A stretch of 64,000 nucleotides of DNA. Origin: a virus. A program made the translations under genes and the position numbers. This document shows positions 31,577 through 59,793 of this stretch, in pieces. Position 1 is the stretch's first letter, and every line of letters begins with the position of its first letter. The notes beneath the pieces were generated by a model, which was given only the letters and a program-made list of their open reading frames with translations, did no database searches and was not told the origin of the DNA. The stretch spans positions 246,859-310,858 of the IMG/VR virus record IMGVR_UViG_3300047558_000137; one strand, given 5' to 3'.

Positions 31577-32419
31577 TTATTTTCCTACATTAATGAAAGG
31601 CATAGCACCTGACATAACATTGGGCAAGTTACCATCCCACTTTTCAATTGCCTTCAATTGCACGTAAGCCGCGCCACCTTGGTTCTGAATAGCACTGGCT
31701 TGAATAGCAATAGCTTTAGCTTCACCTTCGGCCTGTGCAATACGGCTTTGTGCTTCAACTTTGATACGCTCTAAGTCCTGTTCAGCTTTTTGCTTTTGCT
31801 GAGTAGCAATAACTTTAGCTTCAATGGCCTTTTGGTATTCTGCTGAGAATCCAAAGTTCACTAAACTAATACCTTGCACATCAATGTCAAACGGAGCAAC
31901 CTTTGCACGAACATGGTTAAGGATTTCTGCACTAACTTGATCACGCTTGGTAATCAGTTCTTCACTGTTATAGTGAGCAGTTACAGCCTTGAACGCTTCG
32001 TTAACACCGGGGCCCAGAATCTTGTCATCCACATTAAGACCAAACTGGCTGTAGATAGTAGGAACCTTTTCGGGGCTCATACGATACTGAATAACAATAT
32101 CGGTATGCACAGACTGCAAGTCTTTGGTACCTGCTTGTGCTTCTTTCAAGTCCGCACGTTTAACTCGAATTTCAACATTTCGCACACTTGAAATTGGGTT
32201 AACAAAATTAACACCGGGTTGTAATGCAACAGGATTAACTGTACCCATTGTAACTTGAACACCCACGTGTCCTGGAGGCACAATAGTGAAACATTCAAAT
32301 ACAAAGGCAACTGCAAATACTACAGCACCTACCACAATGCCTAGTGTTCGTTGTGCAAACAAAAAGCCCCCAACGACTGCAACAATGGCAAGAAAAATAC
32401 CAAGAAAAATTCCAAACAT
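31577..32419 (-). CDS. SPFH/Band-7 (prohibitin/HflK-C-like) domain membrane protein
   Basis: N-terminal transmembrane segment; SPFH core (VQVTMGTVNP...VRNVEIRVKR...VHTDIVIQYR) and C-terminal A/E/Q-rich coiled coil typical of band-7 proteins. Confidence 0.8.
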   Translation of the reverse strand: MFGIFLGIFLAIVAVVGGFLFAQRTLGIVVGAVVFAVAFVFECFTIVPPGHVGVQVTMGTVNPVALQPGVNFVNPISSVRNVEIRVKRADLKEAQAGTKDLQSVHTDIVIQYRMSPEKVPTIYSQFGLNVDDKILGPGVNEAFKAVTAHYNSEELITKRDQVSAEILNHVRAKVAPFDIDVQGISLVNFGFSAEYQKAIEAKVIATQQKQKAEQDLERIKVEAQSRIAQAEGEAKAIAIQASAIQNQGGAAYVQLKAIEKWDGNLPNVMSGAMPFINVGK

Positions 32420-37551: not shown

Positions 37552-39469
<1,918 letters not shown>

Positions 39470-39554
39470 CATAAACTCCTTTAAAATAAAAATGTGATTA
39501 TATAATAGAAAATGCGAGTCTGTCAACAACACAACCCGCAAAATTATTTATACT

Positions 39555-40325
39555 TTAGAAATACTGAACATTAGTTCTTGGAAAGAAACACTCGTTGTTT
39601 TGTAGAGGTTTCATTTTCATTGTTTCAAGTACAGTGTCTTTGCCTAGACCCATTGCTAGACTGTAAATGAAACTTTGATTGCATATTACCAGCTGGGCAC
39701 CGGCAATAACGTTAGCGAGTTCTAGGAACCCGTTAATAGGACACAAAGGTACATCAACACCAATGTCCCTAATAAACTCTTGACGCTCAGATTCAACACC
39801 AACAAATGTTCCATTGCTGGCTAGGTCAACGTCTTTAACAATATCTTTCCATGCAGCAATGCCTTCTGGATCATTGTATCTACTAGATCTATAAACTACA
39901 ATTGGCGCCACAGGATTGGGGTCTGCTTCTAACCAGGGCTCGTCATAGTCGGACATGTTAAAAGGAATATTGAATGCAAGATGATATCCCTGCACATAGT
40001 TTCCCTCAAAAGTTCTAAACTGTACGCTACGAAAGTGATCTAGATCTACATCAGGTTCGGCATCACCTTTGTGCCACATACTAGTTGTCTGTATGTAAGG
40101 CTGACGCTCTAGCAATGGCTTGAGTTTATAGTAGTCGCTTTCTTTAAAGCGGCCAACATGTGCAGGATCTACTCGTGCCCACTCGGGATTGCCACAGCTA
40201 TACTTGGCTACACATTCTTCAATGTTGTTAATAGCAACTTTATATTCGCCACCACCCATCTTTTTAACAATGGGAAGGCTGTAGATAAGATCGCCTAGTG
40301 TTCCAGAATGCTTAAACGTTTGCAT
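39555..40325 (-). CDS. putative glycosyltransferase (GT9-like C-terminal motif)
   Basis: VICNQSFIYSLAMGLGKDTV resembles the xNDSGxxHLAAALGxP motif of heptosyltransferase-family (GT9) enzymes. Confidence 0.4.
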   Translation of the reverse strand: MQTFKHSGTLGDLIYSLPIVKKMGGGEYKVAINNIEECVAKYSCGNPEWARVDPAHVGRFKESDYYKLKPLLERQPYIQTTSMWHKGDAEPDVDLDHFRSVQFRTFEGNYVQGYHLAFNIPFNMSDYDEPWLEADPNPVAPIVVYRSSRYNDPEGIAAWKDIVKDVDLASNGTFVGVESERQEFIRDIGVDVPLCPINGFLELANVIAGAQLVICNQSFIYSLAMGLGKDTVLETMKMKPLQNNECFFPRTNVQYF

Positions 40326-40692
40326 AGCTCTTTTCTTCTACGATAGTGCTGCCGCAGAGACTGTTAATTTCACGTTTGATACGGGCACGTTCGTCGTTCA
40401 TTTGATATACTTGTCTTGCGGCACGAATAAATTCACTGCTAAAATCCTGCTCTTGTTCGCAGCGGCGTTTGAAATCTTCAATCATCCAGAGATCAGCATT
40501 GACATAGCCCAAGTCTTTCTTTAACTGTGTAATGTCCGGAAGATCTAACTTAGACAAGATAGTTTTTAATTCATCTAATTCGCGTTCTACGTTTTTTAAT
40601 TTTGCAGAGTCACGAATATTAACCATTTTGATCTCTAAGATTGTAATCTTATCAATTAATTCGCCAATGCTGATTGGTGCTAGTACTATCAT
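40312..40692 (-). CDS. hypothetical coiled-coil protein
   Basis: 126-aa ORF. Confidence 0.4.
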   Translation of the reverse strand: MIVLAPISIGELIDKITILEIKMVNIRDSAKLKNVERELDELKTILSKLDLPDITQLKKDLGYVNADLWMIEDFKRRCEQEQDFSSEFIRAARQVYQMNDERARIKREINSLCGSTIVEEKSYANV

Positions 40693-41585
40693 AGTTGTTT
40701 TAATATAGCCGCTGCTATATCCTTTGAGTTAAAATTGCTTGAGCAAGGTGTGTTGCCCTTGCTACATACTAACTGTCTCACTGGACGAGCCTGTACGTCA
40801 TTGCACCCGCGACAATCTTCTAGTGTCTGTACCACTGTGGTATTGTATCCCAGCTGGTTGTTACGATAAGGCAAGATTACTTCGGGTCGCAGATGTGTTA
40901 GCAGTGCAACTATGTGCGTCGAACTGGCACTTGCAGCCCAATAAGGACCTGAATCAATGCCAACAAATGCTTTTGCACCGTCACATAGGACCTTTAACTG
41001 TTGATCATTGAACTTAGTACGTGCATCAACAAATAGTGGATGGTCTTCGATAAACAGGTCTGTTTCGCCGCCCACTGTTACAATCTTAAAGTCTGTGCGA
41101 GTTTCAAACAGTTGTGCAAAAACTTCAAACCAAATGTCGGCATTAATGTTTTTTGCAGTCCAATGCCAGTTACGCATATGAATAACAATATAACTATCTA
41201 GTTCATTCTGGTAAGCAAAGTTCAATACCTTAGTGGAATCTTCTTCTGTGGGGAATAATTCTGTTGATTGATCTAGACCTAGTTGCCCAAATGCACGATA
41301 GAAGTAGTTGTCTACATAGTGTTCTGTTGGATTAAGTTCATATGCATCGTCGAGATTAATATAAACATCATATCTATTGTTTACTGCTGGTATTTGGTCT
41401 ACAGGAAAGACGTTACGTATGTGCGGATTATTTCTATAAATGCCCGCAAAGTCTGTGGCAACGTCAATATTGGCATTGCTACCATAACGTGCCTTTAGTT
41501 CTCTAACTACCCCAGTGGTCATTACTACATCGCCAATTGCAGCACGGCGTTGTAATAGTATGTTAATTGACTTTTCTAATTTCAT
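40689..41585 (-). CDS. glycosyltransferase family 9-like (heptosyltransferase-like)
   Basis: FVGIDSGPYWAASASSTHIVALL matches GT9 GxDSGPxHLAAA motif; N-terminal ILLQRRAAIGDVVMTT matches the GT9 LxxxRxGDxVxxxP start. Confidence 0.6.
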   Translation of the reverse strand: MKLEKSINILLQRRAAIGDVVMTTGVVRELKARYGSNANIDVATDFAGIYRNNPHIRNVFPVDQIPAVNNRYDVYINLDDAYELNPTEHYVDNYFYRAFGQLGLDQSTELFPTEEDSTKVLNFAYQNELDSYIVIHMRNWHWTAKNINADIWFEVFAQLFETRTDFKIVTVGGETDLFIEDHPLFVDARTKFNDQQLKVLCDGAKAFVGIDSGPYWAASASSTHIVALLTHLRPEVILPYRNNQLGYNTTVVQTLEDCRGCNDVQARPVRQLVCSKGNTPCSSNFNSKDIAAAILKQL

Positions 41586-42790
41586 CGTTCTATTCTAATA
41601 TTAGGGAAGTAGGTCATGAAACGATCATTTAGATTATTTCTTGTTTTAAGTATCTTAGATTTAATTTCACGATAGAAATTCCATGCCAATGGTATAAACA
41701 ATACCTGTTCATCTTCTGCAAGACGTTCAAGATAGTTAATACTTACAACAGGAATGTCTGCGCCCGGGCATAAAGTTCCTTGTTTTAAAGGATTATCGTC
41801 TACAACTGCATCTAACTCAATACCACTTGCATTAATTACAGTCATGCCCTTAGCTGCCGCACCATATCCCACAATCTTATACCCTTGTGATCTATAGTCT
41901 GCTACCGTATCACGTAGATCCCCAATAAGAGTTGCAACATCCGATGCCCAACCTCTATAGGTATTGGGATCAGTTAATCCTGCAGCCGCTTCCATTGCTA
42001 GAATGTTTTCAACTCTTTGTGTATTCTTAGGCCGTCTAGCTAGAATAAAGATATAACTGGTGCCATGTATGGGTGTTTTAACTACATCAATTAAGTGTAG
42101 ACCTGCACGTTCTGCTAATGCCTGCATACTTGTGGCGTTGTAGAAACTAATGTGTTCGTGATAGATAGTATCAAACTCACTATTGACAACCATATCGGCT
42201 TGACTTGTGCTGATAAAAATCATTCCGGTATTGGTCATACGCTGTCTAGCGGCCAATAACCAATTTAAGGGATTTGGATTGTGTGCAAAACTGTTCTGTG
42301 CGGTAATAACATCAAACTGTGTATCAAAGCCTTGATCAGTTGGCCAGAAGTCGCATATAACTTGATGTCCTTTTGCTACTGTGTCTGCGTGTAGATTCTT
42401 TGCAGGATCCACACCATATGTTTTAAACCCTAAACGTTTAAATGCATCAAGTTGACTACCATCATTGCAGCCAATATCTAGTACTGTAGTGGGCCAATGA
42501 TCGAACTGTTCACGTACAAAACGTGCATACCAATCCATGTATTCAACATAAGTCCGACTTGTGCCACTAACATAGAGATAGTGGGTATAGATTAGTGCAG
42601 GATCTACTGCGTGTGTTAGCTGTAGATGATTGCAATCGTTGCAACGGTTAATGGCCAACGGATAACGTGGCTCAACTGCTGTGGTAGACCTGAAGTTATT
42701 GGCCAATGGCTGCTCACCTAGATCTAATGTAGGTGTTAAATCTGTGCTGCCACAGGCCACACAACTGGTAATAGGATCGCAATTATTCAT
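41582..42790 (-). CDS. SAM-dependent C-methyltransferase, TylCIII/NDP-hexose 3-C-methyltransferase-like, with N-terminal Zn ribbon
   Basis: N-terminal CVACGS...CNDCNH zinc-binding domain, class I SAM motif VLDIGCNDGSQL, length 402 aa as in sugar C-methyltransferases. Confidence 0.6.
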   Translation of the reverse strand: MNNCDPITSCVACGSTDLTPTLDLGEQPLANNFRSTTAVEPRYPLAINRCNDCNHLQLTHAVDPALIYTHYLYVSGTSRTYVEYMDWYARFVREQFDHWPTTVLDIGCNDGSQLDAFKRLGFKTYGVDPAKNLHADTVAKGHQVICDFWPTDQGFDTQFDVITAQNSFAHNPNPLNWLLAARQRMTNTGMIFISTSQADMVVNSEFDTIYHEHISFYNATSMQALAERAGLHLIDVVKTPIHGTSYIFILARRPKNTQRVENILAMEAAAGLTDPNTYRGWASDVATLIGDLRDTVADYRSQGYKIVGYGAAAKGMTVINASGIELDAVVDDNPLKQGTLCPGADIPVVSINYLERLAEDEQVLFIPLAWNFYREIKSKILKTRNNLNDRFMTYFPNIRIER

Positions 42791-43506
42791 TAGTTCTTAA
42801 TCTGTACGCCGTTTGGTGCAATATGTCCTTCGACCCCAAGCAAAGGTTCGTTGTGTACGTGTTCTTGTGGTAAGAATTTATACAATACATGTTCAATGTC
42901 TACATACCCGCCATTAGCAAGGCGTTCAGCAAAGAAGTTAAAGCTATCTAGGTAAACTTGTATAACTTCATCGGTCATTGTAGTAGGCCAAGACCATAGA
43001 CGTGCCATGTATTGCAACGGTACTTGTGTAACTTCAGGCGGGAATTGACTAGGTTGTGCAGGGCCAATAACAATCTTATCTTTAATATCATCACGTTCGT
43101 AAAGATCTAATTTAAAATCATCATTGAGCAGATATCTTCCTGATACTTTGTGTACACGGTCAAATCCATTTAACATGTTTTCTTGTTGTAAGATACCAAG
43201 TACGCGACTAAAGCACATGATCTCTGTACCGTTCTTAACTACGTCCCAGTTGTCATTGTCGTATAGAGCTTGTACATCTTCATCTGTACTGCAATCAATG
43301 AACACATGGCATACTTCTTTAAGTTGATTGGCTTGTAAATCCTTAATAGGTGTGCCGCAGACTTCCATAACAACAATCAACGCATCGGGCACACGTTGTT
43401 TAATTGTGGCGATAGTGTTTAGTGTTTGGTCTAAACGCTCACGTGGACTGTATACTCCAAATTTACTGTTAATTGCGCTGGTTACGATAAATGCATGTTT
43501 AGTCAT
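42790..43506 (-). CDS. hypothetical protein in sugar island
   Basis: 238-aa ORF coupled to flanking sugar genes. Confidence 0.45.
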   Translation of the reverse strand: MTKHAFIVTSAINSKFGVYSPRERLDQTLNTIATIKQRVPDALIVVMEVCGTPIKDLQANQLKEVCHVFIDCSTDEDVQALYDNDNWDVVKNGTEIMCFSRVLGILQQENMLNGFDRVHKVSGRYLLNDDFKLDLYERDDIKDKIVIGPAQPSQFPPEVTQVPLQYMARLWSWPTTMTDEVIQVYLDSFNFFAERLANGGYVDIEHVLYKFLPQEHVHNEPLLGVEGHIAPNGVQIKN

Positions 43507-43519
43507 AATATATTCTACT

Positions 43520-44704
43520 TTAATAATCTCTGTTAGTCAATTCAATTTTAACTCGTTTACGATACGTGGCCAATGCACTACCAATAACTTGGTGCATGTC
43601 GTAGTACATGTATTCGCCTAAGCGGCCGCCGAAGATCACGTTGGGCTCTTTTTCTGTTAAACTACGGTATTGTGCAAACATTTCCATATCCTCTGGTGTC
43701 TTAACAGGATAATAAGGAACGTCATCTTGTGTTGCAGTGCGGCTAAACTCTCTACCAATTACCGTTTTTCCATCAGCTACACGACGTTCAGGATGAAAGT
43801 GTCGATGTTCTACTTCACGTGTCCACTTTACATCCGTGTCGGGATAATTTAATACAGCGACACCCTGGTAGTCGTTGGTATTTTCTGTACGGTATTCAAA
43901 ATCTAGTGTGCGCCAATTTAGTTGGCCATAGCAATAATCATAGAAAGCATCAATTGGGCCAGTGTAGACCACCAACTTTTCACGTGCCAGATGTTTTACA
44001 TCTTCCCAACAAGTGTTTAAGTGTACTGTAACGTTGTCATGTGCCAACATCTTTTCAAATATTGGTGTGTAACCGTCAACTGGTATGCCTTGATATCTAT
44101 TGTTGTTAGGATAGTAGTCTGTTCGGTAGTCTGTATAAACAGGTAAACGTTTAGCAACACTAGCAGGTAGTTCTTTAGGATCAGTTTCCCACTGCTTTTG
44201 TGTGTATCCCTGCACAAACGCATGATACAATTTAGAACCTAGCAAACTTAGTGCTTGCTCTTCAAAGTTCTTAGGATCATCATAGTGTACTTTTTGTTCT
44301 TCTAACCAACGAGCTGCGTCTGCAGGGTTAAACTCATTACCAGTAAACTTGTTTATTGTATCCAAGTTAATAGGCATGGGGTAAACTACACCTTGATGAC
44401 TTGTTTTGCAGATATGTCGGTAGTTGTTAAACTCAGTAAATTGATTTACATAGTCCCAGATTTCTTTATTATCTGTATGAAATATATGAGAACCATAACG
44501 ATGTACATTTATACCAGTCTCCGGATCAAACTCAGTATAACAGTTGCCACCAATATGATTGCGACTATCAATCACAGCAACCTGAAAGCCATCTCGGCTA
44601 GCCTGTTCAGCAACTACGCTACCAAAGAAGCCGGCACCAACTACAACTAAATCAACGTTTTTAAACATTACTTGCTTAACCAGCGTGTGTTTTCTAGGGT
44701 CCAC
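43520..44704 (-). CDS. glf: UDP-galactopyranose mutase
   Basis: N-terminal FAD fold VVGAGFFGSVVAEQ, then NHIGGNCYTE...YGSHIFHTDNKEIWDYVN...QGYTQKQW...YQGIPVDGYT...IFGGRLGEYMYYDMHQVIGSAL, colinear with E. coli Glf. Confidence 0.9.
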   Translation of the reverse strand: MDPRKHTLVKQVMFKNVDLVVVGAGFFGSVVAEQASRDGFQVAVIDSRNHIGGNCYTEFDPETGINVHRYGSHIFHTDNKEIWDYVNQFTEFNNYRHICKTSHQGVVYPMPINLDTINKFTGNEFNPADAARWLEEQKVHYDDPKNFEEQALSLLGSKLYHAFVQGYTQKQWETDPKELPASVAKRLPVYTDYRTDYYPNNNRYQGIPVDGYTPIFEKMLAHDNVTVHLNTCWEDVKHLAREKLVVYTGPIDAFYDYCYGQLNWRTLDFEYRTENTNDYQGVAVLNYPDTDVKWTREVEHRHFHPERRVADGKTVIGREFSRTATQDDVPYYPVKTPEDMEMFAQYRSLTEKEPNVIFGGRLGEYMYYDMHQVIGSALATYRKRVKIELTNRDY

Positions 44705-45708
44705 TTAGTCATTTCAGCAATGCGTTCGCTAAGTTTAATACGTGGTTCCCAACCTAGATCTTTAAGTAGGCCACCGTCTAGTGCGTAACGCAGGTCATGT
44801 CCCGGACGACTACTATGAAAATCTACCATTTCGTAGTTTAACTCTCGACCTTGCGCTTCCGCAATCCACTTAGCAAGTGTTAGATTATCAACCTCTTCTG
44901 TGCCTACTAGGTTGAACTTAGGGCAGTGTGCGTGTCCGTAATCGCCTGTGTGTTTATAGTCCTTAGGCAAGTTTTGCAAAATAAACATTAGACCTTCAGC
45001 TACATCCCTTGCATGTATGTACATTCGTGTACCAGCTTCTGTTTTCTCTGGGTTAGAGTGAATAAAAACTTTCTCACCATCACGGGCACGTTGGATGCAC
45101 ATAGGAATAAACTTCTCGGGATGCTGACGTTCGCCAAACACGTTCATAGTGTGTGTAACTACAATAGGCATCTTATAAGTGTTTTCGTACGCCACACAAA
45201 ATTCTTCGGCTGCTGCCTTGCTCGCGCTATACGGGTTGGTGCTGTTGTACCGATCATACTCTTTATAAGATACCCCGGGTGGAGCAACCCCAAAAATTTC
45301 GTCTGTTGAAAAGTAAACGAAACGTTCGAGGTTAGGTAAATTTTTTCTAGCATAATCTAACATGTTAACAGTACCAACGGTATTGTCTAACACAAACTCC
45401 ATAGGGTAAGTAATTGAACGATCTACATGCGATGATGCAGCTAGATGCAAAACAATGTCTACTGGACCAATATCTTTAACGATCATTTCGTTTAGTTCTG
45501 CCTTGATATCATGGAATATGATACGCATACGCTTGGCTATTACTGCAGGGTCATGTTCCTTTAACATGTCGTGTAATCGATTTAGATTACCACTAATGTC
45601 AAGTCTATCAAGACTAACGATATTCCAGTCTGTACTAAGTAGGATTTTATCTATAACGTGGTGGGCAATAAAACCTGCGCCACCAGTTATCAAAACTGTT
45701 TTGCTCAT
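44668..45708 (-). CDS. NDP-sugar 4,6-dehydratase (RmlB-like) / NAD-dependent epimerase-dehydratase family
   Basis: Rossmann TGGAGFIAHHV, catalytic YSASKAAAE (YxxxK), PEKFIPMCIQRARDGEKVFI matches RmlB PEKLIP...GKPLPIYG block. Confidence 0.75.
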   Translation of the reverse strand: MSKTVLITGGAGFIAHHVIDKILLSTDWNIVSLDRLDISGNLNRLHDMLKEHDPAVIAKRMRIIFHDIKAELNEMIVKDIGPVDIVLHLAASSHVDRSITYPMEFVLDNTVGTVNMLDYARKNLPNLERFVYFSTDEIFGVAPPGVSYKEYDRYNSTNPYSASKAAAEEFCVAYENTYKMPIVVTHTMNVFGERQHPEKFIPMCIQRARDGEKVFIHSNPEKTEAGTRMYIHARDVAEGLMFILQNLPKDYKHTGDYGHAHCPKFNLVGTEEVDNLTLAKWIAEAQGRELNYEMVDFHSSRPGHDLRYALDGGLLKDLGWEPRIKLSERIAEMTKWTLENTRWLSK

Positions 45709-45734
45709 TGAAACTCCGAGATTATTGAATAATA

Positions 45735-46586
45735 CTATTTATTATACGGGTATGGCGGTAAGAAATCAATTATCTTCTCACCAGAATTGGCCAATATAAA
45801 GTCTGTGTACTGCCGACAGCTGGCAGGAAAGTAGTTGTCTAGGTCAACTATCTTATATGTAGCATCAGCTGAACGATTCCATTCTTTGCCTTCGGCAATA
45901 CTTTTATCTAAATCAATCTGTGCCAGGAACTCAGGTGTATTGACTTCTGTGTGACTAAAACTCTGTGCTTTATCACGTAGGTAGTCGTTGTCGCCCATGT
46001 AACCAAAATGCCATCCAGCATGTTCAATGACTTCGCAACCTTGGTTCTTGTGTTGATATTCGGCACCAAAGAAGTTAAAACGGAAATTACGCAATTGGTT
46101 AGGTGTTATTTCTTTAAACACACTGCCCCTGCCGGCCATTGCCCAAACATCATAACGTGCTGGCTCAAAGCGCATATAGTTAAATTTAAAGTTGCTTAAT
46201 GTCATACGCATGGCAAAGATTATTTGATCTGATTGGCGTATGTATTCAACTGCTGCCGGACGAGGTATTTCATCAACATCAGATACGATCATAATGTCAT
46301 CATCTTCTGCATCAGTTAGGCAATGCAATATTGCATTACGTTGTGCTTCTTCGTTTACCCATGGATTTGGGTCTCCGGGTAAGTTGACAGGCAAATACCT
46401 AATCTTATCTGCATAAGGTTTAAATCTATCATAATGTTGTGGAAATAACGGAGTGCGAGCACGATTGGTAAATGTACTAGTGCCTTCAACAATGACAAAC
46501 ACATCCACTGTGTTGTATAATTCTTTAAGGCGTATTTCTAATAGATCGAGTTCATTGTAAAATGTAAAGCAGTCAAATATACGCAT
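45735..46586 (-). CDS. glycosyltransferase family 17-like (beta-1,4-N-acetylglucosaminyltransferase-like)
   Basis: N-terminus MRIFDCFTFYNELDLLEIRLKELYNTVDVFVIVEG matches the conserved GT17 start IxDCFxFxNELDxLExRL. Confidence 0.55.
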   Translation of the reverse strand: MRIFDCFTFYNELDLLEIRLKELYNTVDVFVIVEGTSTFTNRARTPLFPQHYDRFKPYADKIRYLPVNLPGDPNPWVNEEAQRNAILHCLTDAEDDDIMIVSDVDEIPRPAAVEYIRQSDQIIFAMRMTLSNFKFNYMRFEPARYDVWAMAGRGSVFKEITPNQLRNFRFNFFGAEYQHKNQGCEVIEHAGWHFGYMGDNDYLRDKAQSFSHTEVNTPEFLAQIDLDKSIAEGKEWNRSADATYKIVDLDNYFPASCRQYTDFILANSGEKIIDFLPPYPYNK

Positions 46587-46593
46587 ATAAATA
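46586..46593 (+). promoter_or_regulatory. T4-late-promoter-like TATAAATA box
   Basis: Exact TATAAATA 30 nt upstream of the ATG of the plus-strand methyltransferase gene. Confidence 0.45.
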
Positions 46594-46623
46594 TTTATTA
46601 ATCAATATATTGTAACAAAAACA

Positions 46624-47208
46624 ATGCAACAATTCAATACTCTAGATGGTATCCAGGTTGATGAGGCACACGTGGCCTTAATCAATGGTATCGTCAAAAG
46701 CCAAAAACCTCAACGCATACTAGAATTAGGTTTAGGATCTGGTACTACTACTGATGCAATACTAGAAGCCCTACAGTTTAATCAGCAACCGTTTGAGTTT
46801 ACTCTAGTAGACTTATGGTTAGAACGTGCCTGGGGCGGTGACCCGGATACTATGCGATCGGGCACATGCCCTCCTGAAGCTGTAGAAAAGTACAGCCAAT
46901 ATATCAACATTGTTACCAGTGACGAACGCGAGTATGTATTCAATTGTGGCAAAACATTTGATTTTATCATGAGTGATGCTGATCACCATAATACACAAAA
47001 ATGGTTTGAATACGTCTACGCAGAAGTACTAGAAGCCGGCGGCACGTTAATCTATCATGACGTAACTGACCGTAGCTTTACAAACCTAAGAGAGATATAC
47101 GAAAAATGTAAACTGTTTAATTTACGCTTTACATTGTTCAACAAGAATAGCCGCAGTGACGAACGTTGTGACCGTGGCCTGTTAGTAATCTATAAACCCG
47201 AAGAATAA
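46624..47208 (+). CDS. class I SAM-dependent methyltransferase (O-methyltransferase-like)
   Basis: RILELGLGSGTTTD motif I; 194 aa. Confidence 0.6.
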   Translation: MQQFNTLDGIQVDEAHVALINGIVKSQKPQRILELGLGSGTTTDAILEALQFNQQPFEFTLVDLWLERAWGGDPDTMRSGTCPPEAVEKYSQYINIVTSDEREYVFNCGKTFDFIMSDADHHNTQKWFEYVYAEVLEAGGTLIYHDVTDRSFTNLREIYEKCKLFNLRFTLFNKNSRSDERCDRGLLVIYKPEE

Positions 47209-47217
47209 GGAATCAAT

Positions 47218-47913
47218 ATGTACGCTGTAGTAAGCATGAGCACCCATAGTATCGCCGACCTGGCAGATCAAACAGATGGACTAAAGAAGGAATACTGTGA
47301 CCATAATGGTTATGAATTCTTTGCTATCAAAGACGAAGACTTTAAAGTATTTACTAAACCATATAGTAGCTTTATGGACTGGAACAAGGCGTTCTACGTA
47401 AACGATTTGCTAAAGTCACGCCCAGACATCGAATGGGTATTGATTAGCGAAGCAGATGCTACTATCACTAACATGACTACACGCATGGAAGATAAAGTTG
47501 ATAACAATTATCACGTTATTATTCCAGTAGACGTAAACAACTTAAACGGCGGTAACTGGTTACTTCGTAATAGCGAAGAAGGTCGTGCTTACATTCAAAT
47601 GATGGTTGATGTTGTTGAGGACTACAGAGAAGATCAAAGTCCTGATGGTAAACTAAAAGACAAATGGGGACTACAACAGGTAATGATTGATACTATTGGT
47701 CAATACGAAGCGATTGTTAAGATTGTTCCACAAAAGCACATGAACAGCTACGAACCAGAAATCTATGACTACTTAGATGTTCGCACAGACATCCTAGGAA
47801 CATCTGGCGTATGGGAAAAGGGCGATTGGATTATTCACTGGCCCGGTATTAGGCACAATGTTCGACTTGATAGAGTTAAACGATTAGAAGACGAACAAAT
47901 GATTGTTCGATAG
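47218..47913 (+). CDS. hypothetical protein (possible nucleotide-sugar transferase)
   Basis: 231-aa ORF with good AAGGA Shine-Dalgarno; co-transcribed with methyltransferase. Confidence 0.45.
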   Translation: MYAVVSMSTHSIADLADQTDGLKKEYCDHNGYEFFAIKDEDFKVFTKPYSSFMDWNKAFYVNDLLKSRPDIEWVLISEADATITNMTTRMEDKVDNNYHVIIPVDVNNLNGGNWLLRNSEEGRAYIQMMVDVVEDYREDQSPDGKLKDKWGLQQVMIDTIGQYEAIVKIVPQKHMNSYEPEIYDYLDVRTDILGTSGVWEKGDWIIHWPGIRHNVRLDRVKRLEDEQMIVR

Positions 47914-47923
47914 TCACAAAAAA

Positions 47924-47947
47924 GCCCGCCTAAGCGGGCTATTTTTT
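47924..47947 (+). terminator. rho-independent terminator (GCCCGC-CTAA-GCGGGC followed by ATTTTTT)
   Basis: Closes the two-gene plus-strand cassette. Confidence 0.7.
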
Positions 47948-49028: not shown

Positions 49029-49985
49029 TTATGCTTTTAAAATCCCATTAATTAAACCAGGGGAAAATACATCTTCGTACTTAGTGTACAAAGGCTCAAC
49101 TATATCTCTCATTTTTGCAATTTCGGAATCGCTAAATTTGTAATAGCTAACCCCCAACTCATCATGGCGAGCTTGGTTAACTGCGTAGTCCTCTGCTTCT
49201 GCAACACTTTCTTCGCGTTCACGAACCGCAGCAACACGGGCAGCTTGTCTTACAAATTCTTGATCTTCAGAATCTAAACTATTCCAGAAATCTTTAGAAA
49301 TTAAGATGCTTGTTAAGTACATGCTATGTTTAGTATCAACAATGTGCTTTTGAACAGCGGTATTAGCTTCGTATTCGTAACGTGGTAATGTAGTTTCTAC
49401 TGTGTAACCATTCTTTTGTAATACTTCGCTCTTGGCATCATAGTTACGTGCGCTGATAGCAAGTGGTTCGCATCCAAAAATCTTAGCTGTATCTACCATT
49501 ACTGGGTTTGGTGCAGTAACTAGTTTAATTCCCTTTAAGTCCTCAAAGGAATTAATCTTTTTATCTGACGCTAGGCATCTATACCCGCCACTATATGTAA
49601 ATGCTAGACCATGAACAGGAGTGTTTTTTTGTAGACTATCTAATAGTCCTCGACCAATTTCTCCGTCTAGAACACGAGTTGCATGATCGTGGTCTTTAAA
49701 CAAATATGGCATTTCTAATGCAAAAAAGTCCGGTGCATTCCATACACCAATAAGGTTAGTTTGCATCTGGCTCATTTCTACGTCATTATTTTGTATCAAT
49801 GACAATGGCTCGTGTTTTACGCCATTTTTAAATTTATCTGAATATTCTTCAAGTGTGTACACTTCCACATTGATTCTGTCTCCGGTTAAGCGGGCAATTT
49901 CTTGAGAAAATGCTTTAGCAGTACGGACAAACAAGTGGATAGGTTCGTGATATAATACCCAACGTATTGTGTGATTCTTTTTCAT
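49029..49985 (-). CDS. TRAP-transporter DctP-like solute-binding protein homolog (no signal peptide)
   Basis: VHGLAFTYSGGYRCLASDKKINSFEDLKGIKLVTAPNPVMVDTAKIFGCEPLAIS colinear with DctP GLAFWDNGFK...LKMRIQSS...ALGA.P region; N-terminus lacks secretion signal. Confidence 0.6.
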   Translation of the reverse strand: MKKNHTIRWVLYHEPIHLFVRTAKAFSQEIARLTGDRINVEVYTLEEYSDKFKNGVKHEPLSLIQNNDVEMSQMQTNLIGVWNAPDFFALEMPYLFKDHDHATRVLDGEIGRGLLDSLQKNTPVHGLAFTYSGGYRCLASDKKINSFEDLKGIKLVTAPNPVMVDTAKIFGCEPLAISARNYDAKSEVLQKNGYTVETTLPRYEYEANTAVQKHIVDTKHSMYLTSILISKDFWNSLDSEDQEFVRQAARVAAVREREESVAEAEDYAVNQARHDELGVSYYKFSDSEIAKMRDIVEPLYTKYEDVFSPGLINGILKA

Positions 49986-50025: not shown

Positions 50026-50463
50026 TTATATTTTAATTAGATATTCGTAATTAACAGAAGACTCGTTTTCGCGCATAATTATTGCCCCATTTTTTAAATG
50101 GAATCTGCGGGCCATTTCAGTTTTGGGACTTAGAGTAACAAATCTAGTAATAGTTGGGTAGCGGTTGCGTATTTCGTTGACTGTTTCTCTGAGTAGCTCT
50201 ACCCCTGCGCCCGGGGCATAACTCCATATAGTGTAAAAGATTGCTGTAGTTGGTTGCTCAGCATCGCGAGAAAGATCATCAACATCTGCTGGTACAAAGT
50301 CATGCAGACTAACACAAACGATTGCTCTAGGTTTTTCATCGACTAACGCACTAATAAACCTTTTACCTTGTACACGAAACTCTGCAGGAATTTCAGGGCG
50401 AACGGGGTCGTCCTTTATGTAGGAAAGTATTGGGCTTTGTGGGTCAGTGATAATCGATAGCAT
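50026..50463 (-). CDS. hypothetical protein (possible GNAT-fold)
   Basis: 145-aa ORF; weak acetyltransferase-like YTIWSYAPGAGVELL. Confidence 0.3.
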   Translation of the reverse strand: MLSIITDPQSPILSYIKDDPVRPEIPAEFRVQGKRFISALVDEKPRAIVCVSLHDFVPADVDDLSRDAEQPTTAIFYTIWSYAPGAGVELLRETVNEIRNRYPTITRFVTLSPKTEMARRFHLKNGAIIMRENESSVNYEYLIKI

Positions 50464-51822: not shown

Positions 51823-51896
51823 TGGAGCGGGATAGCGGAATCGAACCGCTGACTTGAACTTGGAAGGATCTCGTTTTACCATTAAACTAATCCCGC
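51823..51896 (-). tRNA. tRNA, probably Gly(TCC); anticodon stem imperfect
   Basis: Cloverleaf with T-arm AGCGG-TTCGATT-CCGCT, acceptor GCGGGAT/ATCCCGC, encoded CCA; loop CTTCCAA but only 3/5 stem pairs. Confidence 0.6.
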
Positions 51897-51903
51897 ATAA
51901 ACT

Positions 51904-51978
51904 TGGTACCTTGTGACAGTTTCGAACTGCCGACCCTCTCGGTGTAAACGAGACGCTCTACCCCTGAGCTAACAAGGC
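51904..51978 (-). tRNA. tRNA-Val(TAC)
   Basis: GCCTTGT-TA-GCTCAGGGGTAGAGC-G-TCTCG-TTTACAC-CGAGA...TTCGAAA; CCA encoded. Confidence 0.8.
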
Positions 51979-52081
51979 AACTATTTTTTGTACTCTTGCA
52001 AGTACTGATTTCTTTTTGAAATCTTTTTATATCTACTTCCTTTGCCTTTACTACCAAAGTTTTCTGTTTGACTATGGCAAA

Positions 52082-52157
<76 letters not shown>

Positions 52158-52161
52158 CATA

Positions 52162-52238
52162 TTGGTTGCAGAGGCTGGATTCGAACCAGCGGCCTCCAGG
52201 TTATGAGCCTAGCGGGATGACCAACTTCCCTACCCTGC
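52162..52238 (-). tRNA. tRNA-Met(CAT), initiator-like (C1 opposite A72)
   Basis: CGCAGGG...CTAGG-CTCATAA-CCTGG...GCTGGTTCGAATCCAGC-CTCTGCA-A-CCA; unpaired 1:72 is the bacterial initiator hallmark. Confidence 0.75.
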
Positions 52239-52246
52239 GTCAATAT

Positions 52247-52882
52247 TTATACCAGCTGCTCTGCTACTAACAGAGAAACTGTATCAGCATCCAATTCGAT
52301 TTCGGTGCGAACATTAAGTTCCAACACCCGATCATTGATGCTTTGTTTTTCTTTTTTCAGGCTACGCATTTCTGCCTTGTAACCTTCAATTTGTTCTGCT
52401 GTCAACACGCCAGTGTCAACTGTGTCGCTGTACCCATACATACGGGTCTTTGAATCGCTGTCGCGAAGTTTCCGCAACTTGCCAGACAACACTTTTTCCG
52501 ATTCAACAACTTTGCCTTCGGTTAGGCTTTTTAGTTGGCCAATACGCTTATCAACGTAAGCGGCTTCTGTGAGCAAGTCTGCTACACCACTTGCGGCATT
52601 AGCACGACCAACTTGGGCACGAATTGCGTACAAGGCCTTTGTCAGCTTGTTACGGCGTGCATCGTTAGCAACAACGCCTTCACGAGCACAAGCCAACTCT
52701 TTAGCTGGATCCTGGAACTCGTTTAGTGAAAACGATGTAGTCACTTCAATGGTTTTTGTGTGTTCCTGGATTGTGTTTTGTAATGCGTTTGCTTTGCGAA
52801 GTGTAATCTTCATAATCGAGTCCCTTTCTGATTGAATTATAGCAGTGAGCGTATGGCAAGTCAATTGCCGGACAATGTGCAA
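52247..52882 (-). CDS. hypothetical coiled-coil protein (start possibly at internal MKITLRK)
   Basis: 211-aa ORF directly downstream of tRNA-Met. Confidence 0.45.
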   Translation of the reverse strand: MHIVRQLTCHTLTAIIQSERDSIMKITLRKANALQNTIQEHTKTIEVTTSFSLNEFQDPAKELACAREGVVANDARRNKLTKALYAIRAQVGRANAASGVADLLTEAAYVDKRIGQLKSLTEGKVVESEKVLSGKLRKLRDSDSKTRMYGYSDTVDTGVLTAEQIEGYKAEMRSLKKEKQSINDRVLELNVRTEIELDADTVSLLVAEQLV

Positions 52883-53108
52883 AATACATTAGCGGTTAGA
52901 CATTTTTAGGCGCCTAAATTACTAAAGCAAAATACAAGAGACAGAGGATACCAATATTCGTGAGTGTCAACAAACAAGGCAATTACGCCGGGGTCTCACA
53001 TCACTGGATCACGATTGTTAATGCAATATTTCCGTTCAAGGGAATATTACGGTGCAATCTCTCATCTCCATACACATCACCGTCCTGTTTTAATAAACAG
53101 GCAAAATC

Positions 53109-53291
53109 TTAACAATGTTCTTTAAACAACGCCTTGCGCTTTTCTTGGCCCAATGTGTTATCTAAAACATCTTTGCATCTATTCATCATACCAAAACATA
53201 AAATCAATAACTCATTCTGGTCATCGCACATCATAATCTGCTGTTCGATGGGTTGCATAAGTTCTTTTAATTTTTGATCAATAGGATGCAT
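53109..53291 (-). CDS. small hypothetical protein (track ORF 53109-53366 runs into tRNA-Cys; shortened to internal Met)
   Basis: MHPIDQKLKELMQPIEQQIMMCDDQNELLILCFGMMNRCKDVLDNTLGQEKRKALFKEHC. Confidence 0.3.
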   Translation of the reverse strand: MHPIDQKLKELMQPIEQQIMMCDDQNELLILCFGMMNRCKDVLDNTLGQEKRKALFKEHC

Positions 53292-53296
53292 AAACT

Positions 53297-53372
53297 TGGA
53301 GCACGGTGTAGGAGTTGAACCTACCTCATACCGGGTTTGCAATCCAGCGCATAACCGCTCTGCCAACCGTGC
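53297..53372 (-). tRNA. tRNA-Cys(GCA)
   Basis: GCACGGT...D-loop AGCGGTTA identical to E. coli tRNA-Cys, loop TTGCAAA, T-arm GTAGG-TTCAACT-CCTAC, CCA encoded. Confidence 0.75.
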
Positions 53373-53504
53373 ATAATTCTTTGTTTAGTGGGCTACCCCT
53401 CATGTTCTCTTACTCTTGGGTAACGTGACCAGATCGCATAGCACCGAAGAACAATCCGTACTATACTAGGCTCCCTCGCTAAAGGCATCACTAAACAAAA
53501 ACTT

Positions 53505-53596
53505 ATATGTAAACACACTACCACGGCGTTATACTGCTGTATCGCAAGCAATACTACCATGTCTACCCATTGTGCATGTAATGTGTTTGCATATAA
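53505..53596 (-). repeat. copy A of about 90-nt conserved hairpin element (arms ATGTAAACACACT / AATGTGTTTGCATAT)
   Basis: Second copy at 56129-56207 abuts the 3' end of tRNA-Lys; arms are inverted repeats of each other, inner region partly conserved (AATACTACC / AGTATTGCTACC). Confidence 0.55.
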
Positions 53597-53597
53597 G

Positions 53598-53670
53598 TGG
53601 AGGACTGAGATTACATCTCTCCCAATAGCACCTCGAGCATTATACTGCACCTTGCGAGCACAGCTTCTCT
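53598..53670 (-). pseudogene. degenerate tRNA-like remnant (3' end CTCAGTCCTCCA resembles tRNA-Lys 3' end) attached to repeat copy A
   Basis: No canonical T-loop; same junction with the hairpin element as the intact tRNA-Lys copy. Confidence 0.25.
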
Positions 53671-53928
53671 CGACATCCACGGTAACCCTTGCGGTATTAC
53701 TGTCTGCTATCAGCATCGCCGTTTTTAACGTCAGGCAGTAGACGTGTCGCTATCAGCTACTCTGTACCTTATTTCCCGTTGACCTTTAGAGCCATTCACA
53801 GTCGCTAAACTGTTACGAAACTTCTAGTACAAACCAATTTCACCTTGCGAGTTACGTTGGACTTGATTCACTTGCGTGTCAAGCATTAGATGCTTTTCAC
53901 TGATAACCGTGTCAGACTTTGCGTTTTT

Positions 53929-54000
53929 CGATGTTAGCTGGGATCGAACCAGCAGTCTATTTCTTAGAAGGAAATCGGCCTACCATTAGCCTATAACAAC
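53929..54000 (-). tRNA. tRNA-Arg(TCT), no encoded CCA, one acceptor mismatch
   Basis: GTTGTTA-TA-GGCTAATGGTAGGCC-G-ATTTC-CTTCTAA-GAAAT...GCTGGTTCGATCCCAGC-TAACATC. Confidence 0.6.
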
Positions 54001-54735
54001 CTACTATGATGAGCTGACACAGTTGATCCATACACTTTTGGTATACAGAATACAACTCACCACGTACCTTTCCTCTCGCGGAGTAATCAGTCGTTTTTTG
54101 CGATCAATGTCTACGCTAACACGTAACCACCAACCACTCAAACTGCACTACAACCCTTAGGAGCGACCCCTCGGATCATAACGCTACCCTTTCTCATACT
54201 AACTGACAAGTTGGTTTTGCTGTGAAGTCGGCACCACCCGTTACTTTCCACACACCCGAGTTCCCTTTGATGCGATCTCTGGCTCGACGATATGCGTTCT
54301 TCCCACAGCACTTGCTTCATTGTTACATCCACCGGTCTTATCAGTGAACGCTACCTCACGGTAGTGAGCAGGCTTGCTTAAATGAACTATTGCTAGCGGA
54401 GTTGCGTAGGCTTACCTCCTTTGGCTGTGTCACCACAGTTATTCTTTGTCTAGCCGGGCGAACCGACTCTACAGGACATTAAGCTGCCCTTAAATTCTTA
54501 TACAACTGCACACTCACAGGAATTGAACCTGTCTACCTGGCGACCATTTGTTCATCCAGGCTGCAATCCGCTACATCTGCGTGGCCTACGCATTTGTGTG
54601 CATGTGTATAAGAACTTCTTATACTTTAACTTTTTAAAGAACATTTTCGTCAGTTATTGCTAACTGTCTAAGTATCTATTGTTACATAAAAAACATTTAT
54701 TGTCAACTGTTTTTTAGATAAAAATAAAAATATTT

Positions 54736-54810
54736 TGGTCCGGCGTGCAGGAATCGAACCCACATTCGCGAGGTAGAAGCTCGCTGTATTATCCATTATA
54801 CTAACGCCAG
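54736..54810 (-). tRNA. tRNA-Arg(TCT), second copy; paralogous to tRNA-Arg(ACG) at 58222
   Basis: CTGGCGT-TA-GTATAATGGATAATAC-A-GCGAG-CTTCTAC-CTCGC...GTGGGTTCGATTCCTGC-ACGCCGG-A-CCA. Confidence 0.75.
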
Positions 54811-54830
54811 TTAGATATAAGTATTATACT

Positions 54831-55385: not shown

Positions 55386-55468
55386 TGGTACCCCCGGTCA
55401 GATTCGAACTGACATATTATACTCCTCTGTTTGAGAGAGGCGACTTTACCAAATTTGTCCACAGGGGC
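55386..55468 (-). tRNA. tRNA-Leu(CAA), class II long variable arm
   Basis: GCCCCTG...CCTCT-CTCAAAC-AGAGG plus 12-nt variable arm, GTCAGTTCGAATCTGAC, CCA encoded. Confidence 0.75.
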
Positions 55469-55474
55469 ATTTAT

Positions 55475-56282: not shown

Positions 56283-56286
56283 ATAT

Positions 56287-56361: not shown

Positions 56362-56454
56362 TTAGTGTATTACGTTTTGTTTAACGTGCTAACCCAGACC
56401 AATACGGGATCTGAGTCAACACTAACGTTTACCACGTTTCATGTTGTTCTCCTG

Positions 56455-59789: not shown

Positions 59790-59793
59790 AAAC

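Follow-up and report, generated by a model that had tools for sequence, protein, structure and literature searches.

The window analysed here, a 64,000-nt stretch, is part of a large uncultured aquatic phage (tail fibre, tail spike, DnaB and helicase genes and 27 tRNAs are present) and contains a sugar/glycosylation island of ten genes at 39555-47913. Judging from its gene content, we consider the island to be probably a phage-encoded glycan-building system, which would make a rare methyl-branched deoxysugar and galactofuranose (Galf) and then attach them to an acceptor. The sequence-only reading had recognized in this locus a sugar pathway consisting of a 4,6-dehydratase, a C-methyltransferase and a UDP-galactopyranose mutase (Glf). 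The positions and the minus-strand orientation of these three genes were confirmed; the neighbouring glycosyltransferases had been overlooked, and the locus is a glycosylation island, more than a sugar pathway. Eight translationally coupled genes make up a minus-strand unit (39555-46586), the genes for the dehydratase, Glf, the protein u238 and the C-methyltransferase being its middle four; overlaps of 1-4 nt between neighbouring minus-strand genes are a sign of an operon. Two divergent plus-strand genes (46624-47913) complete the island. Its GC content, 0.40, is the same as that of the remaining window, which argues against a fresh insertion.

The gene at 44668-45708 (minus strand) encodes an extended SDR of 346 aa, which, as had been proposed, is of the RmlB-like NDP-glucose 4,6-dehydratase type. 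Its best NCBIfam match is TIGR01181 (dTDP-glucose 4,6-dehydratase) with 225 bits, a score under the 365-bit equivalog cut-off, versus 93 bits for GalE, 80 for CDP-glucose dehydratase and 58 for GMD; grouping with UDP-glucose 4-epimerases did not occur. The ten best PDB matches are all dTDP-glucose 4,6-dehydratases (E 3e-48 to 3e-32), and the motifs GGAGFIA at 9, STDE at 134, YSASK at 160, PEKFIP at 197 and RPGHDLRY at 301 are present. The protein is 73-90% identical to its counterparts in related phage loci, 70-73% to those of SAR11 and 62-67% to those of cyanomyoviruses (the latter range applies to the RmlB-like SDRs of the cyanophages S-SM2 and S-SRM01).

As for the methyltransferase (41582-42790, minus strand, 402 aa), it has the full architecture of TylC3/TcaB9-type NDP-hexose C-methyltransferases, i.e., a Zn ribbon, a class I SAM methyltransferase domain and a C-terminal domain (Methyltransf_13, PF08421; Methyltransf_23, PF13489; Methyltransf_14, PF08484). 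The four Zn cysteines are kept, the motifs include CVAC at 10, CNDC at 50, DIGCNDG at 105 and IYHEH at 209, and E212 and H213 of the last motif are invariant among the 19 sequences compared. The best PDB matches are MtmC (1e-62), TcaB9 (6e-53) and a "sugar 3-C-methyl transferase" (1e-49), and grouping with non-sugar Methyltransf_13 proteins was not observed. Identity to characterised enzymes is only ~30-35%, and in a rough neighbour-joining tree, built without support values, the phage enzymes form their own clade next to those of aquatic bacteria and separate from MtmC, the Streptomyces enzymes and TcaB9. Homologues number 7582 at E<=1e-10 among 8000 candidates scored, and 564 in IMG/VR; the nearest cellular relatives belong to SAR11, Acidimicrobiaceae, candidate-phyla (CPR) lineages and betaproteobacteria, where their loci are surface-glycan-like. 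Considering these homologues, the separate phage clade and the proposal for Coxiella virenose discussed below, the view that such enzymes are otherwise known from antibiotic pathways is too narrow.

The resemblance to TcaB9, MtmC and TylC3 of actinomycete antibiotic deoxysugar pathways extends to the SAM motif and to the genetic coupling with a 4,6-dehydratase. In contrast to those pathways, the phage locus lacks a 2,3-dehydratase, a 3-ketoreductase, an aminotransferase and a 4-ketoreductase, and its surroundings are glycosyltransferases instead of a polyketide cluster. For virenose, a 6-deoxy-3-C-methyl sugar of Coxiella burnetii LPS, an in-silico model proposes the TylCIII-type enzyme CBU_0691 and a similar route to a surface glycan, from a 4,6-dehydratase through a C3-methyltransferase to reduction; its authors found no dedicated ketoreductase for the dTDP route and suggested that the methyltransferase has a dual function (PMC3539893). 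The Coxiella system differs from the phage island by its location on a bacterial chromosome, its O-antigen context and the presence of nucleotidyltransferases.

Co-location of the dehydratase and the C-methyltransferase is not due to chance: among the 61 related IMG/VR loci whose flanks are long enough, 60 have the former upstream of the latter in the same orientation (median gap 716 bp). Hundreds of viral contigs contain the pair as well, and so do SAR11 bacteria, in whose genomes the two genes are neighbours at 13 loci; such coupling, in viral loci and SAR11 chromosomes alike, is to be expected if one enzyme feeds the other, as the sequence-only reading had supposed. One SAR11 locus, L096, has pheS/pheT/lepA and a gyrB-like gene on its flanks and is therefore cellular. 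In the mini-islands of SAR11 (Pelagibacterales; L096, L137 and others) the C-methyltransferase is 43-45% identical to the phage one, and the pair is accompanied by GT9-like or GT17, GT2, Methyltransf_24 and FkbM methyltransferase genes, also without a reductase or a nucleotidyltransferase. They differ from the phage island in being cellular, in their GC content of 22-29% and in the lack of u238, Glf and GT34, and their accessory glycosyl- and methyltransferases are no close homologues of the phage ones.

The identity of Glf (43520-44668, minus strand) stood: it scores 344 bits with TIGR00031, above the cut-off of 303.75 bits, and 1.5e-74 with Pfam GLF. Its start is most likely the ATG at 44668, which shares one base with the stop codon of the dehydratase gene (TAATG), rather than the listed GTG at 44704. 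Its membership in a conserved pathway did not stand, as only 11 of 88 related loci carry it, and Glf is an accessory, optional cassette. None of the island glycosyltransferases could be assigned as a Galf-transferase.

The minus-strand unit begins with a GT17-family glycosyltransferase (45735-46586; PF04724, 6.3e-33), a family also found beside the C-methyltransferase in SAR11 (L127, L137), gammaproteobacterial and CPR loci and close to it in the huge phage LR756502. Downstream of the C-methyltransferase, and overlapping its stop by 4 nt, lies a GT9-like (heptosyltransferase-like) gene (40689-41585, 298 aa; Glyco_transf_9, 23.9 bits at a cut-off of 22; weak NCBIfam matches to heptosyltransferases I/III and RfaQ), carried by 62 of the 88 related loci. 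It is followed by a gene for a DUF6165 protein (40312-40692, 126 aa; PF19662, 9.6e-16; 9/88 loci) and by u256 (39555-40325), a second GT9-fold glycosyltransferase, assigned by fold and having no Pfam family. The GT9 relatives, like the cellular homologues, speak for LPS or a surface polysaccharide as acceptor. The plus-strand pair encodes a class I methyltransferase, probably an O-methyltransferase (46624-47208; Methyltransf_24, PF13578, 1.9e-08), whose family recurs in the SAR11 island L096 and in the phage locus L005, and a GT34-family glycosyltransferase (47218-47913; PF05637, 2.1e-15; 34/88 loci). The pair ends at a hairpin resembling a bidirectional terminator (47923-47940; consensus match only), with a 7-bp stem including 6 GC pairs and T-runs on either strand. 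A hydrophobicity scan revealed no segment of membrane-span grade in any island protein, so that all look soluble, and no flippase, polymerase or priming transferase was found in the island.

Homology and motifs indicate that the SDR oxidises and dehydrates an NDP-glucose (dTDP- or UDP-linked) provided by the host, giving NDP-4-keto-6-deoxyglucose. From the 4-keto group the Zn-ribbon SAM enzyme would then generate an enolate and methylate the neighbouring carbon, as homology and the near-invariant gene linkage suggest; the analogous enzymes TcaB9 and MtmC make C3 the most likely position, and the product would be an NDP-C-methyl-4-keto-6-deoxyhexose. The keto group could be reduced with NADPH by the C-methyltransferase itself, as MtmC does with an unmethylated substrate, or by a reductase from the host or a distant phage locus; alternatively, the keto or hydrated sugar could be transferred unreduced. 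Glf would separately turn host UDP-Galp into UDP-Galf, and five soluble glycosyltransferases (GT17, u238, the two GT9-fold proteins and GT34) together with the second methyltransferase would assemble and decorate the glycan. Its acceptor should be reachable from the cytoplasm; roughly, virion proteins have somewhat less than an even chance of being it, a host LPS-core or envelope precursor a little less again, and DNA or other molecules take the remainder.

It is quite possible, though we lean to the contrary, that the island remodels the host surface rather than glycosylates virions, its sugars being added to LPS core or an envelope precursor at the inner membrane face. In that case receptors would be altered, which would block superinfection or loss of progeny on debris. 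LPS heptosyltransferases are indeed the closest structures of both GT9-fold proteins, the closest cellular pairs of dehydratase and C-methyltransferase reside in the SAR11 mini-islands with their GT9-like, GT2 and methyltransferase genes, another close pair belongs to a gammaproteobacterial Wzx-containing cluster, and the pectate-lyase-like tail spike of the phage suggests a glycan receptor.

The RmlA and 4-ketoreductase that the branched-sugar proposal calls for were found nowhere in the 64-kb window, nor were any other nucleotidyltransferase, second SDR or 3,5-epimerase; the genome probably comprises ~300 kb more. A branched C-methyl 6-deoxysugar is thus plausible, with a pathway incomplete in the window; its final form may be reduced or 4-keto, with the methyl group at C3 or C5. 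A different sugar would result if the enzyme methylated C5, like NovU/CloU, or acted mainly as an MtmC-like 4-ketoreductase, which we regard as unlikely. The phage clade does stand apart from all characterised members, most phage and SAR11 loci have no ketoreductase nearby, and the best PDB match, sharing the identical motif EFDTIYHEH, is MtmC, a bifunctional enzyme performing both methylation and keto reduction (PMC10269268); however, the enzyme retains the SAM-binding motif and the catalytic E-H, and the relatives with characterised structures are all 3-C-methyltransferases. Somewhat more doubtful still is a textbook three-step pathway in which u238 activates hexose-1-phosphate, the SDR dehydrates, the C-methyltransferase methylates, and the GT17, GT9-like and GT34 proteins transfer. 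The 238-aa u238 (42790-43506, minus strand; no Pfam family) has a GT-A fold, its structural neighbours in Foldseek include glycosyltransferases of giant viruses, and it is probably a glycosyltransferase and less likely a sugar nucleotidyltransferase.

Hypermodification of phage DNA, with a hydroxylated or hydroxymethylated base glycosylated for protection from restriction, is very improbable, even though all island proteins look soluble and there are known phage clusters in which genes for sugar-nucleotide synthesis accompany those for DNA glycosyltransferases (bioRxiv 10.1101/2023.12.21.572611; PMC13326640): a Pfam scan of ~53 window ORFs revealed no hydroxymethylase, TET/JBP-type dioxygenase or DNA methyltransferase. 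Five glycosyltransferases and two methyltransferases imply, moreover, an oligosaccharide. To our knowledge, its size would exceed that of most DNA modifications, and none of GT17, GT34 and GT9 is a DNA-glycosyltransferase family.

Glycosylation of virions is encoded by giant viruses (Mimivirus R141/L780 and fibril glycans, chlorovirus capsid glycans) and mycobacteriophages; giant-virus clusters combine nucleotide-sugar enzymes, including a 4,6-dehydratase, with soluble glycosyltransferases and methyltransferases and vary between clades. The phage island resembles these systems in its clustering of such genes; its hosts, however, are bacteria, and virion proteins are only a candidate target of its glycan. 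We know of no C-branched sugar or Galf pathway reported for them. The cyanophage DSL-LC02 likewise possesses a GMD, a C-methyltransferase homologue, a GDP-fucose synthase and many glycosyltransferases, but its cassette is GDP-mannose-based and includes a reductase, and its C-methyltransferase is only 25% identical; the homologue in cyanophage S-SKS1 lacks the Zn ribbon.

The conserved core of the island is formed by the GT17, dehydratase, u238, C-methyltransferase and GT9-like genes. Around it, variable cassettes occupy one genomic slot shared by a clade of large aquatic phages (contigs of ~355-365 kb): Glf with an RmlD-like SDR; a nucleotidyltransferase with a RuBisCO-like protein and SDRs; a hexapeptide acyltransferase; FkbM methyltransferases; or a P4H-like oxygenase. 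Such swapping of cassettes at one slot around a conserved core suggests that an exposed glycan is under diversifying selection. The P4H-like oxygenases occur in 20 of 88 phage islands and are absent from this window; they point to a protein acceptor.

The sugar genes belong to an island of ten genes (39555-47913), eight on the minus strand (39555-46586) and two divergent genes on the plus strand (46624-47913). The minus-strand genes, joined by 1-4-nt overlaps or short gaps, encode in order a GT17 glycosyltransferase (45735-46586), an RmlB-like dehydratase (44668-45708), a UDP-galactopyranose mutase (Glf; 43520-44704 as called), the GT-A-fold protein u238 (42790-43506, 238 aa), a C-methyltransferase (41582-42790), a GT9-like protein (40689-41585), a DUF6165 protein (40312-40692) and the 256-aa GT9-fold protein u256 (39555-40325). 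The plus-strand pair, closed by a bidirectional hairpin, consists of a Methyltransf_24 methyltransferase (46624-47208) and a GT34 protein (47218-47913). Five of the ten products are probable glycosyltransferases; the others are two methyltransferases, a pair of nucleotide-sugar enzymes and a single DUF protein. The sequence-only reading, built on the dehydratase, the C-methyltransferase and Glf, took too small a gene set and missed the wider glycosyltransferase island around it; its three genes are confirmed in the interval 41582-45708, yet four minus-strand genes lie there, u238 being the additional one. No family was assigned to u238 in Pfam, NCBIfam or PHROG, and PHROGs gave no match for seven of the ten island proteins. 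AlphaFold models of u238 and u256, computed from alignments of metagenomic homologues, are confident (mean pLDDT 92). The kinship of u256 with the neighboring GT9-like protein is visible at the fold level only, as BLASTP finds no significant similarity between them.

When 50,697 phage records were searched by megablast with the 8.5-kb island, no match came up, and the phage is without a close sequenced relative among these records; its best links are to PA5oct-like jumbo phages (40% aa identity on one protein) and to Vibrio phage 2.275.O (GroEL, 60%). The window belongs to a large phage; that it is a contaminant or of cellular origin was rejected because it has phage structural and replication genes (tail fibers, a pectate-lyase-like tail spike, DnaB, helicases) and a uniform GC content, with the island at about 0.40 and the rest of the window at 0.37-0.46.

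The dehydratase is a 346-aa extended SDR, whose top curated NCBIfam family is TIGR01181 (dTDP-glucose 4,6-dehydratase, 225.3 bits), followed at a distance by GalE (93), CDP-glucose dehydratase (80) and GMD (58 bits); the lead of TIGR01181 exceeds 65 bits over other dTDP-glucose dehydratase models and reaches 130 bits over GalE. Because the score lies under the equivalog cut-off of 365.1 bits, we call the protein an RmlB-like NDP-hexose 4,6-dehydratase and stop short of claiming RmlB orthology. Its ten closest PDB structures are all dTDP-glucose 4,6-dehydratases (E 3e-48 to 3e-32), with the bacterial dTDP enzymes at 3e-48 and Mimivirus R141 (6vlo) at 1.7e-32. The NAD-binding Rossmann motif takes the form GGAGFIA (residues 9-15, GxxGxxG test), and the catalytic motifs STDE (134-137) and YSASK (160-164) align with their counterparts in the RmlBs of the PDB. 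In RmlB structures, the Asp/Glu pair beside YxxxK tells dehydratases from GalE-type epimerases. The protein also carries PEKFIP and RPGHDLRY, which we take to be RmlB-typical motifs. The SDR is therefore of the 4,6-dehydratase type, as had been proposed, and does not group with UDP-glucose 4-epimerases (TIGR01181 225 vs. GalE 93 bits).

The C-methyltransferase (402 aa) consists of a Methyltransf_13 Zn ribbon, a class I SAM domain and a Methyltransf_14 C-terminal domain; PF08421, the class I SAM methyltransferase domain and PF08484 each exceed the Pfam cut-off. Full-length alignments were obtained with three PDB proteins, MtmC (1e-62), TcaB9 (6e-53) and a "sugar 3-C-methyl transferase" (1e-49). 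The enzyme has all four Zn-binding cysteines (C10, C13, C50 and C53, CxxC...CxxC), and contains DIGCNDG as well as IYHEH at residues 209-213, where E212 and H213 do not vary across 19 homologues. This Glu-His of the Y-x-E-H motif is presumably the catalytic pair, as in mutant studies of TcaB9. Architecture and active site place the protein in the sugar C-methyltransferase family, in agreement with the initial assignment, and no grouping with non-sugar Methyltransf_13 proteins was observed. In a rough neighbor-joining tree, built without support values and without the TylC3, EvaC, NovU and CloU sequences, all phage C-methyltransferases form one clade, sister to a SAR11 clade; MtmC, the Streptomyces sequences and TcaB9 are placed elsewhere, so that the phage clade does not group with biochemically characterized members. 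Judging from these comparisons, the enzyme is a family member by architecture, and its uncharacterized, environmentally abundant branch is tied to surface-glycan-like loci rather than to antibiotic clusters. The view that this family is otherwise exclusive to antibiotic pathways was wrong: besides the phage/SAR11 branch, a TylCIII-type enzyme was proposed for virenose, an LPS sugar of Coxiella (PMC3539893).

The exact C-methyltransferase sequence was found on two short metagenomic contigs only, while homologues at 52-70% identity are numerous (7582 at E<=1e-10 among 8000 candidates scored), several of them on contigs of 200-365 kb, one labeled "uncultured Caudovirales phage". Eighty IMG/VR loci were fetched for a tblastn survey of linkage, and 61 of them had at least 3.5 kb upstream. 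In 60 of these 61 an RmlB-like dehydratase lies upstream of the C-methyltransferase on the same strand, with a median gap of 716 bp, which is exactly u238. An enzyme predicted to make the 4-keto sugar substrate thus accompanies the C-methyltransferase in nearly all of these 61 IMG/VR loci, and it does so in SAR11 loci too.

The dehydratase is 73-90% identical in most related phage loci and 56-66% in the most distant ones, far more conserved than either the C-methyltransferase (52-68%) or the glycosyltransferases (30-68%); to the cyanomyovirus and SAR11 versions its identity is 62-73%. Such conservation suggests, at the sequence level, either strong constraint or repeated exchange. Among the phages (L003-L088) it reaches 90% aa identity and equals that of GroEL.

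The rest of the island varies. With the addition of eight loci from metagenomes (L001-L008, two of them copies of the window sequence) the set of related loci numbers 88, and in these u238 is present in 65, the GT9-like gene in 62, u256 in 41, GT17 in 40, GT34 in 34 and Glf in 11. Glf itself is well supported: it scores above the TIGR00031 equivalog cut-off (344.3 vs. 303.75 bits), has the FAD-binding GxGxxG motif (GAGFFG) close to the N-terminus, and probably starts at the ATG at 44668, overlapping the dehydratase stop (TAATG). As to its place in the pathway logic, with only 11 of the 88 loci it is an accessory cassette instead of a part of that logic. No glycosyltransferase co-varies with Glf across the related loci, and the likeness of u238 to the Galf-transferases GfsA and GlfT2 is at the level of the general GT-A fold only. 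Alternative cassettes in the same slot of relatives are an RmlD-like SDR with Glf, FkbM-type methyltransferases and a hexapeptide acyltransferase. In L005 (4845-7048; also in L016 and L031) the Glf slot is occupied by an NTP_transf_3 nucleotidyltransferase-like gene followed by a gene for a 397-aa RuBisCO-like protein, with two additional SDRs alongside. The best matches of the latter protein are form III RuBisCO, MtnW enolase and OiaX, all below cut-offs. In 20 of the 88 phage loci a P4H-like 2OG-Fe(II) oxygenase (PF13640) stands directly beside the dehydratase or the C-methyltransferase (L015, 9255-9998; L025, 542-1297; L041, 178-969; L076, 8126-8893; and 16 further loci). Outside the phage clade, all 82 loci (80 from cellular genomes, two from cyanophages) lack it, and it is also absent from the window. 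The oxygenase may indicate hydroxylation-dependent protein glycosylation.

Cellular counterparts were sought with one genome per species. The nearest C-methyltransferases belong to SAR11, Acidimicrobiaceae and candidate-phyla (CPR) lineages (42-48% identity), followed by those of betaproteobacteria (36-38%) and Streptomyces (33-34%). SAR11 genomes provided 13 loci in which the gene directly upstream of the C-methyltransferase encodes an SDR that shares 70-73% identity with the phage dehydratase. One of them, L096, is clearly chromosomal, since its mini-island is set between pheS/pheT/lepA and a gyrB-like gene. This mini-island (6016-11827) encodes a GT9-like protein, the dehydratase, the C-methyltransferase, GT2, Methyltransf_24 and an FkbM methyltransferase, and neither a reductase nor a nucleotidyltransferase was found in it; a second one (L137, 5194-10048) encodes GT17, the dehydratase, the C-methyltransferase and GT2. 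Such SAR11 mini-islands are low in GC (22%). Their gene content implies an uncharacterized, predicted methyl-branched sugar on the SAR11 surface. The SAR11 GT9-like and Methyltransf_24 genes were rejected as orthologues of the phage genes, as the similarity is at the family level only. Further afield, a gammaproteobacterial MAG has a cluster of GT2, SDR, a GT2-PMT fusion, Wzx, RmlD-like SDR, C-methyltransferase and GT17 genes, and in a 642-kb huge phage GT17 lies close to the C-methyltransferase.

The order of action from dehydratase to C-methyltransferase that had been put forward is thus strongly backed by the linkage (60/61) and by SAR11; the pathway is not complete within the 64-kb window. 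In ~53 window ORFs scanned with Pfam/NCBIfam, and by tblastn, there was no sugar-1-phosphate nucleotidyltransferase (RmlA), no second SDR, RmlD or 4-ketoreductase, and no RmlC-type epimerase; the tblastn queries, namely the SDRs, the nucleotidyltransferase and the RuBisCO-like protein of relatives, matched nothing. A nucleotidyltransferase is not strictly required, because host dTDP-/UDP-glucose and UDP-galactose could serve; an NTP_transf_3 gene is present in some relatives. The absent 4-ketoreductase is a real gap in the predicted pathway. A second SDR (at least 40% identity to the reductase-like SDRs of relatives) occurs within 10 kb in only nine of the 61 viral loci. Having no reductase close by is a trait of the module and not specific to the window. 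An RmlD-like SDR accompanies Glf in seven of the 11 Glf-bearing related loci (L012, L024, L027, L030, L036, L042 and L055). In 28 cellular loci (e.g., L125, 7121-8002) and a few phages (L063, 9082-10005) an RmlD/epimerase-like SDR of 290-307 aa precedes the C-methyltransferase, replacing the RmlB-like dehydratase; it is a candidate for the dedicated 4-ketoreductase absent from the window and the SAR11 islands.

Homology and motifs indicate that the SDR yields an NDP-4-keto-6-deoxyglucose, which the C-methyltransferase, given its homology and near-invariant linkage, would methylate at the carbon adjoining the keto group, probably C3. The 4-keto group could be reduced by a bifunctional C-methyltransferase or by a host enzyme, or it could be kept. 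MtmC acts as methyltransferase or 4-ketoreductase depending on the cofactor (PMC10269268), and for Coxiella virenose a dual-function methyltransferase was suggested for want of a ketoreductase (PMC3539893). The product would be transferred by GT17 and/or u238, Glf, where present, would supply UDP-Galf, and the glycan could be extended and decorated by the GT9-fold proteins, GT34 and the second methyltransferase.

As to the acceptor, none of the ten island proteins contains a stretch with the hydrophobicity needed to cross a membrane, and no flippase, polymerase, ligase or priming transferase was found in the island; soluble enzymes without export machinery fit a cytoplasmic glycosylation target. 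The phage-restricted P4H-like oxygenases and a TibC-like fold hint at a protein acceptor, i.e., virions, to which we give slightly less than an even chance. The LPS core is suggested instead by the relatives of the GT9 proteins and by the homologues in cells, and modification of the host envelope is a serious, if somewhat less favored, possibility. DNA or another acceptor takes the small remainder, DNA ranking low because no base-modifying enzymes were found among the ~53 window ORFs scanned and five glycosyltransferases seem excessive for a DNA mark. The tail fiber encoded at 18800-23338 (1512 aa) has two collagen-like GXY runs of 36 and 33 triplets; that it is the acceptor stays speculation, since these repeats are GxQ-rich with few Pro/Lys and no P4H-like gene is present in the window. 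A bolder scenario, which we consider unlikely, is that the dehydratase and the C-methyltransferase form a self-sufficient two-enzyme route, with MtmC-like keto reduction, from host UDP-/dTDP-glucose to a C-methyl-branched 6-deoxyhexose, and that a cosmopolitan clade of ~360-kb aquatic phages with swappable cassettes (Glf, P4H-like hydroxylases) displays a hypervariable glycan on its own virion proteins.

Glycosylation encoded by viruses has been amply described for giant viruses; the phage examples are mainly from mycobacteriophages and DNA glucosylation. Like the island described here, clusters of nucleotide-sugar synthesis and glycosyltransferase genes are already known from giant viruses, cyanophages and mycobacteriophages; cyanophage DSL-LC02 has an analogous GDP-linked cassette of GMD, a C-methyltransferase homologue and GDP-fucose synthase, and its publication does not discuss the C-methyltransferase homologue. 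Among deposited phage records Glf occurs in about 90, the RmlB-like SDR in 283, including cyanomyoviruses at 62-67% identity, and the C-methyltransferase in just 10. On the sequence evidence, the island is real, coherent and widespread, with 564 relatives of the C-methyltransferase in IMG/VR, and the pathway is a prediction. We found no literature report of a C-branched sugar pathway in any virus, so the island, conserved and widely distributed, would concern a sugar class without a viral report. If the two-enzyme route and virion coating were true, no C-branched sugar would precede this one in viruses, and the phages would have an equivalent of the fibril glycosylation of giant viruses. A glycan on virions would have consequences for host recognition, for grazing or immune evasion, and for how stable the phages are in aquatic systems, while remodeling of the host envelope would represent a new kind of surface conversion by a lytic phage. 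The minimal pair of dehydratase and C-methyltransferase, which SAR11 shares and which includes no reductase, offers in addition a compact candidate for enzymatic synthesis of branched sugars and may inform on an uncharacterized SAR11 surface glycan.

Several other features of the window deserve mention. Directly downstream of the island lie phage GroES/GroEL genes (37552-39541), the GroEL being ~70% identical to gammaproteobacterial GroEL. They are preceded by a perfect 12/12 match to the sigma-70 consensus (TTGACA-18-TATAAT, 39526-39497, minus strand), and GroES probably starts at an internal Met, because this match falls within the mechanically called GroES ORF. On the other side, a TRAP-transporter solute-binding protein (DctP family, 1.6e-40; 49029-49985) and a malonyl-CoA decarboxylase C-terminal-like protein (50026-50463) are encoded, and both genes are kept beside the island in relatives L003 and L007. 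The region 51823-63191 contains 27 tRNA genes, every one of them on the minus strand. Among the small ORFs scattered between them are 58534-59706, for a radical-SAM protein, and 56455-57078, for a dual-specificity phosphatase-like protein. The Mtd_N (major tropism determinant N-terminal) domain occurs in two proteins (15413-16966 and 1245-2582), one of which also has a pectate-lyase-like depolymerase domain, and the phage genes also include those for a pirin/quercetinase-like bicupin (14737-15411) and an SPFH/Band 7 protein (31577-32419).
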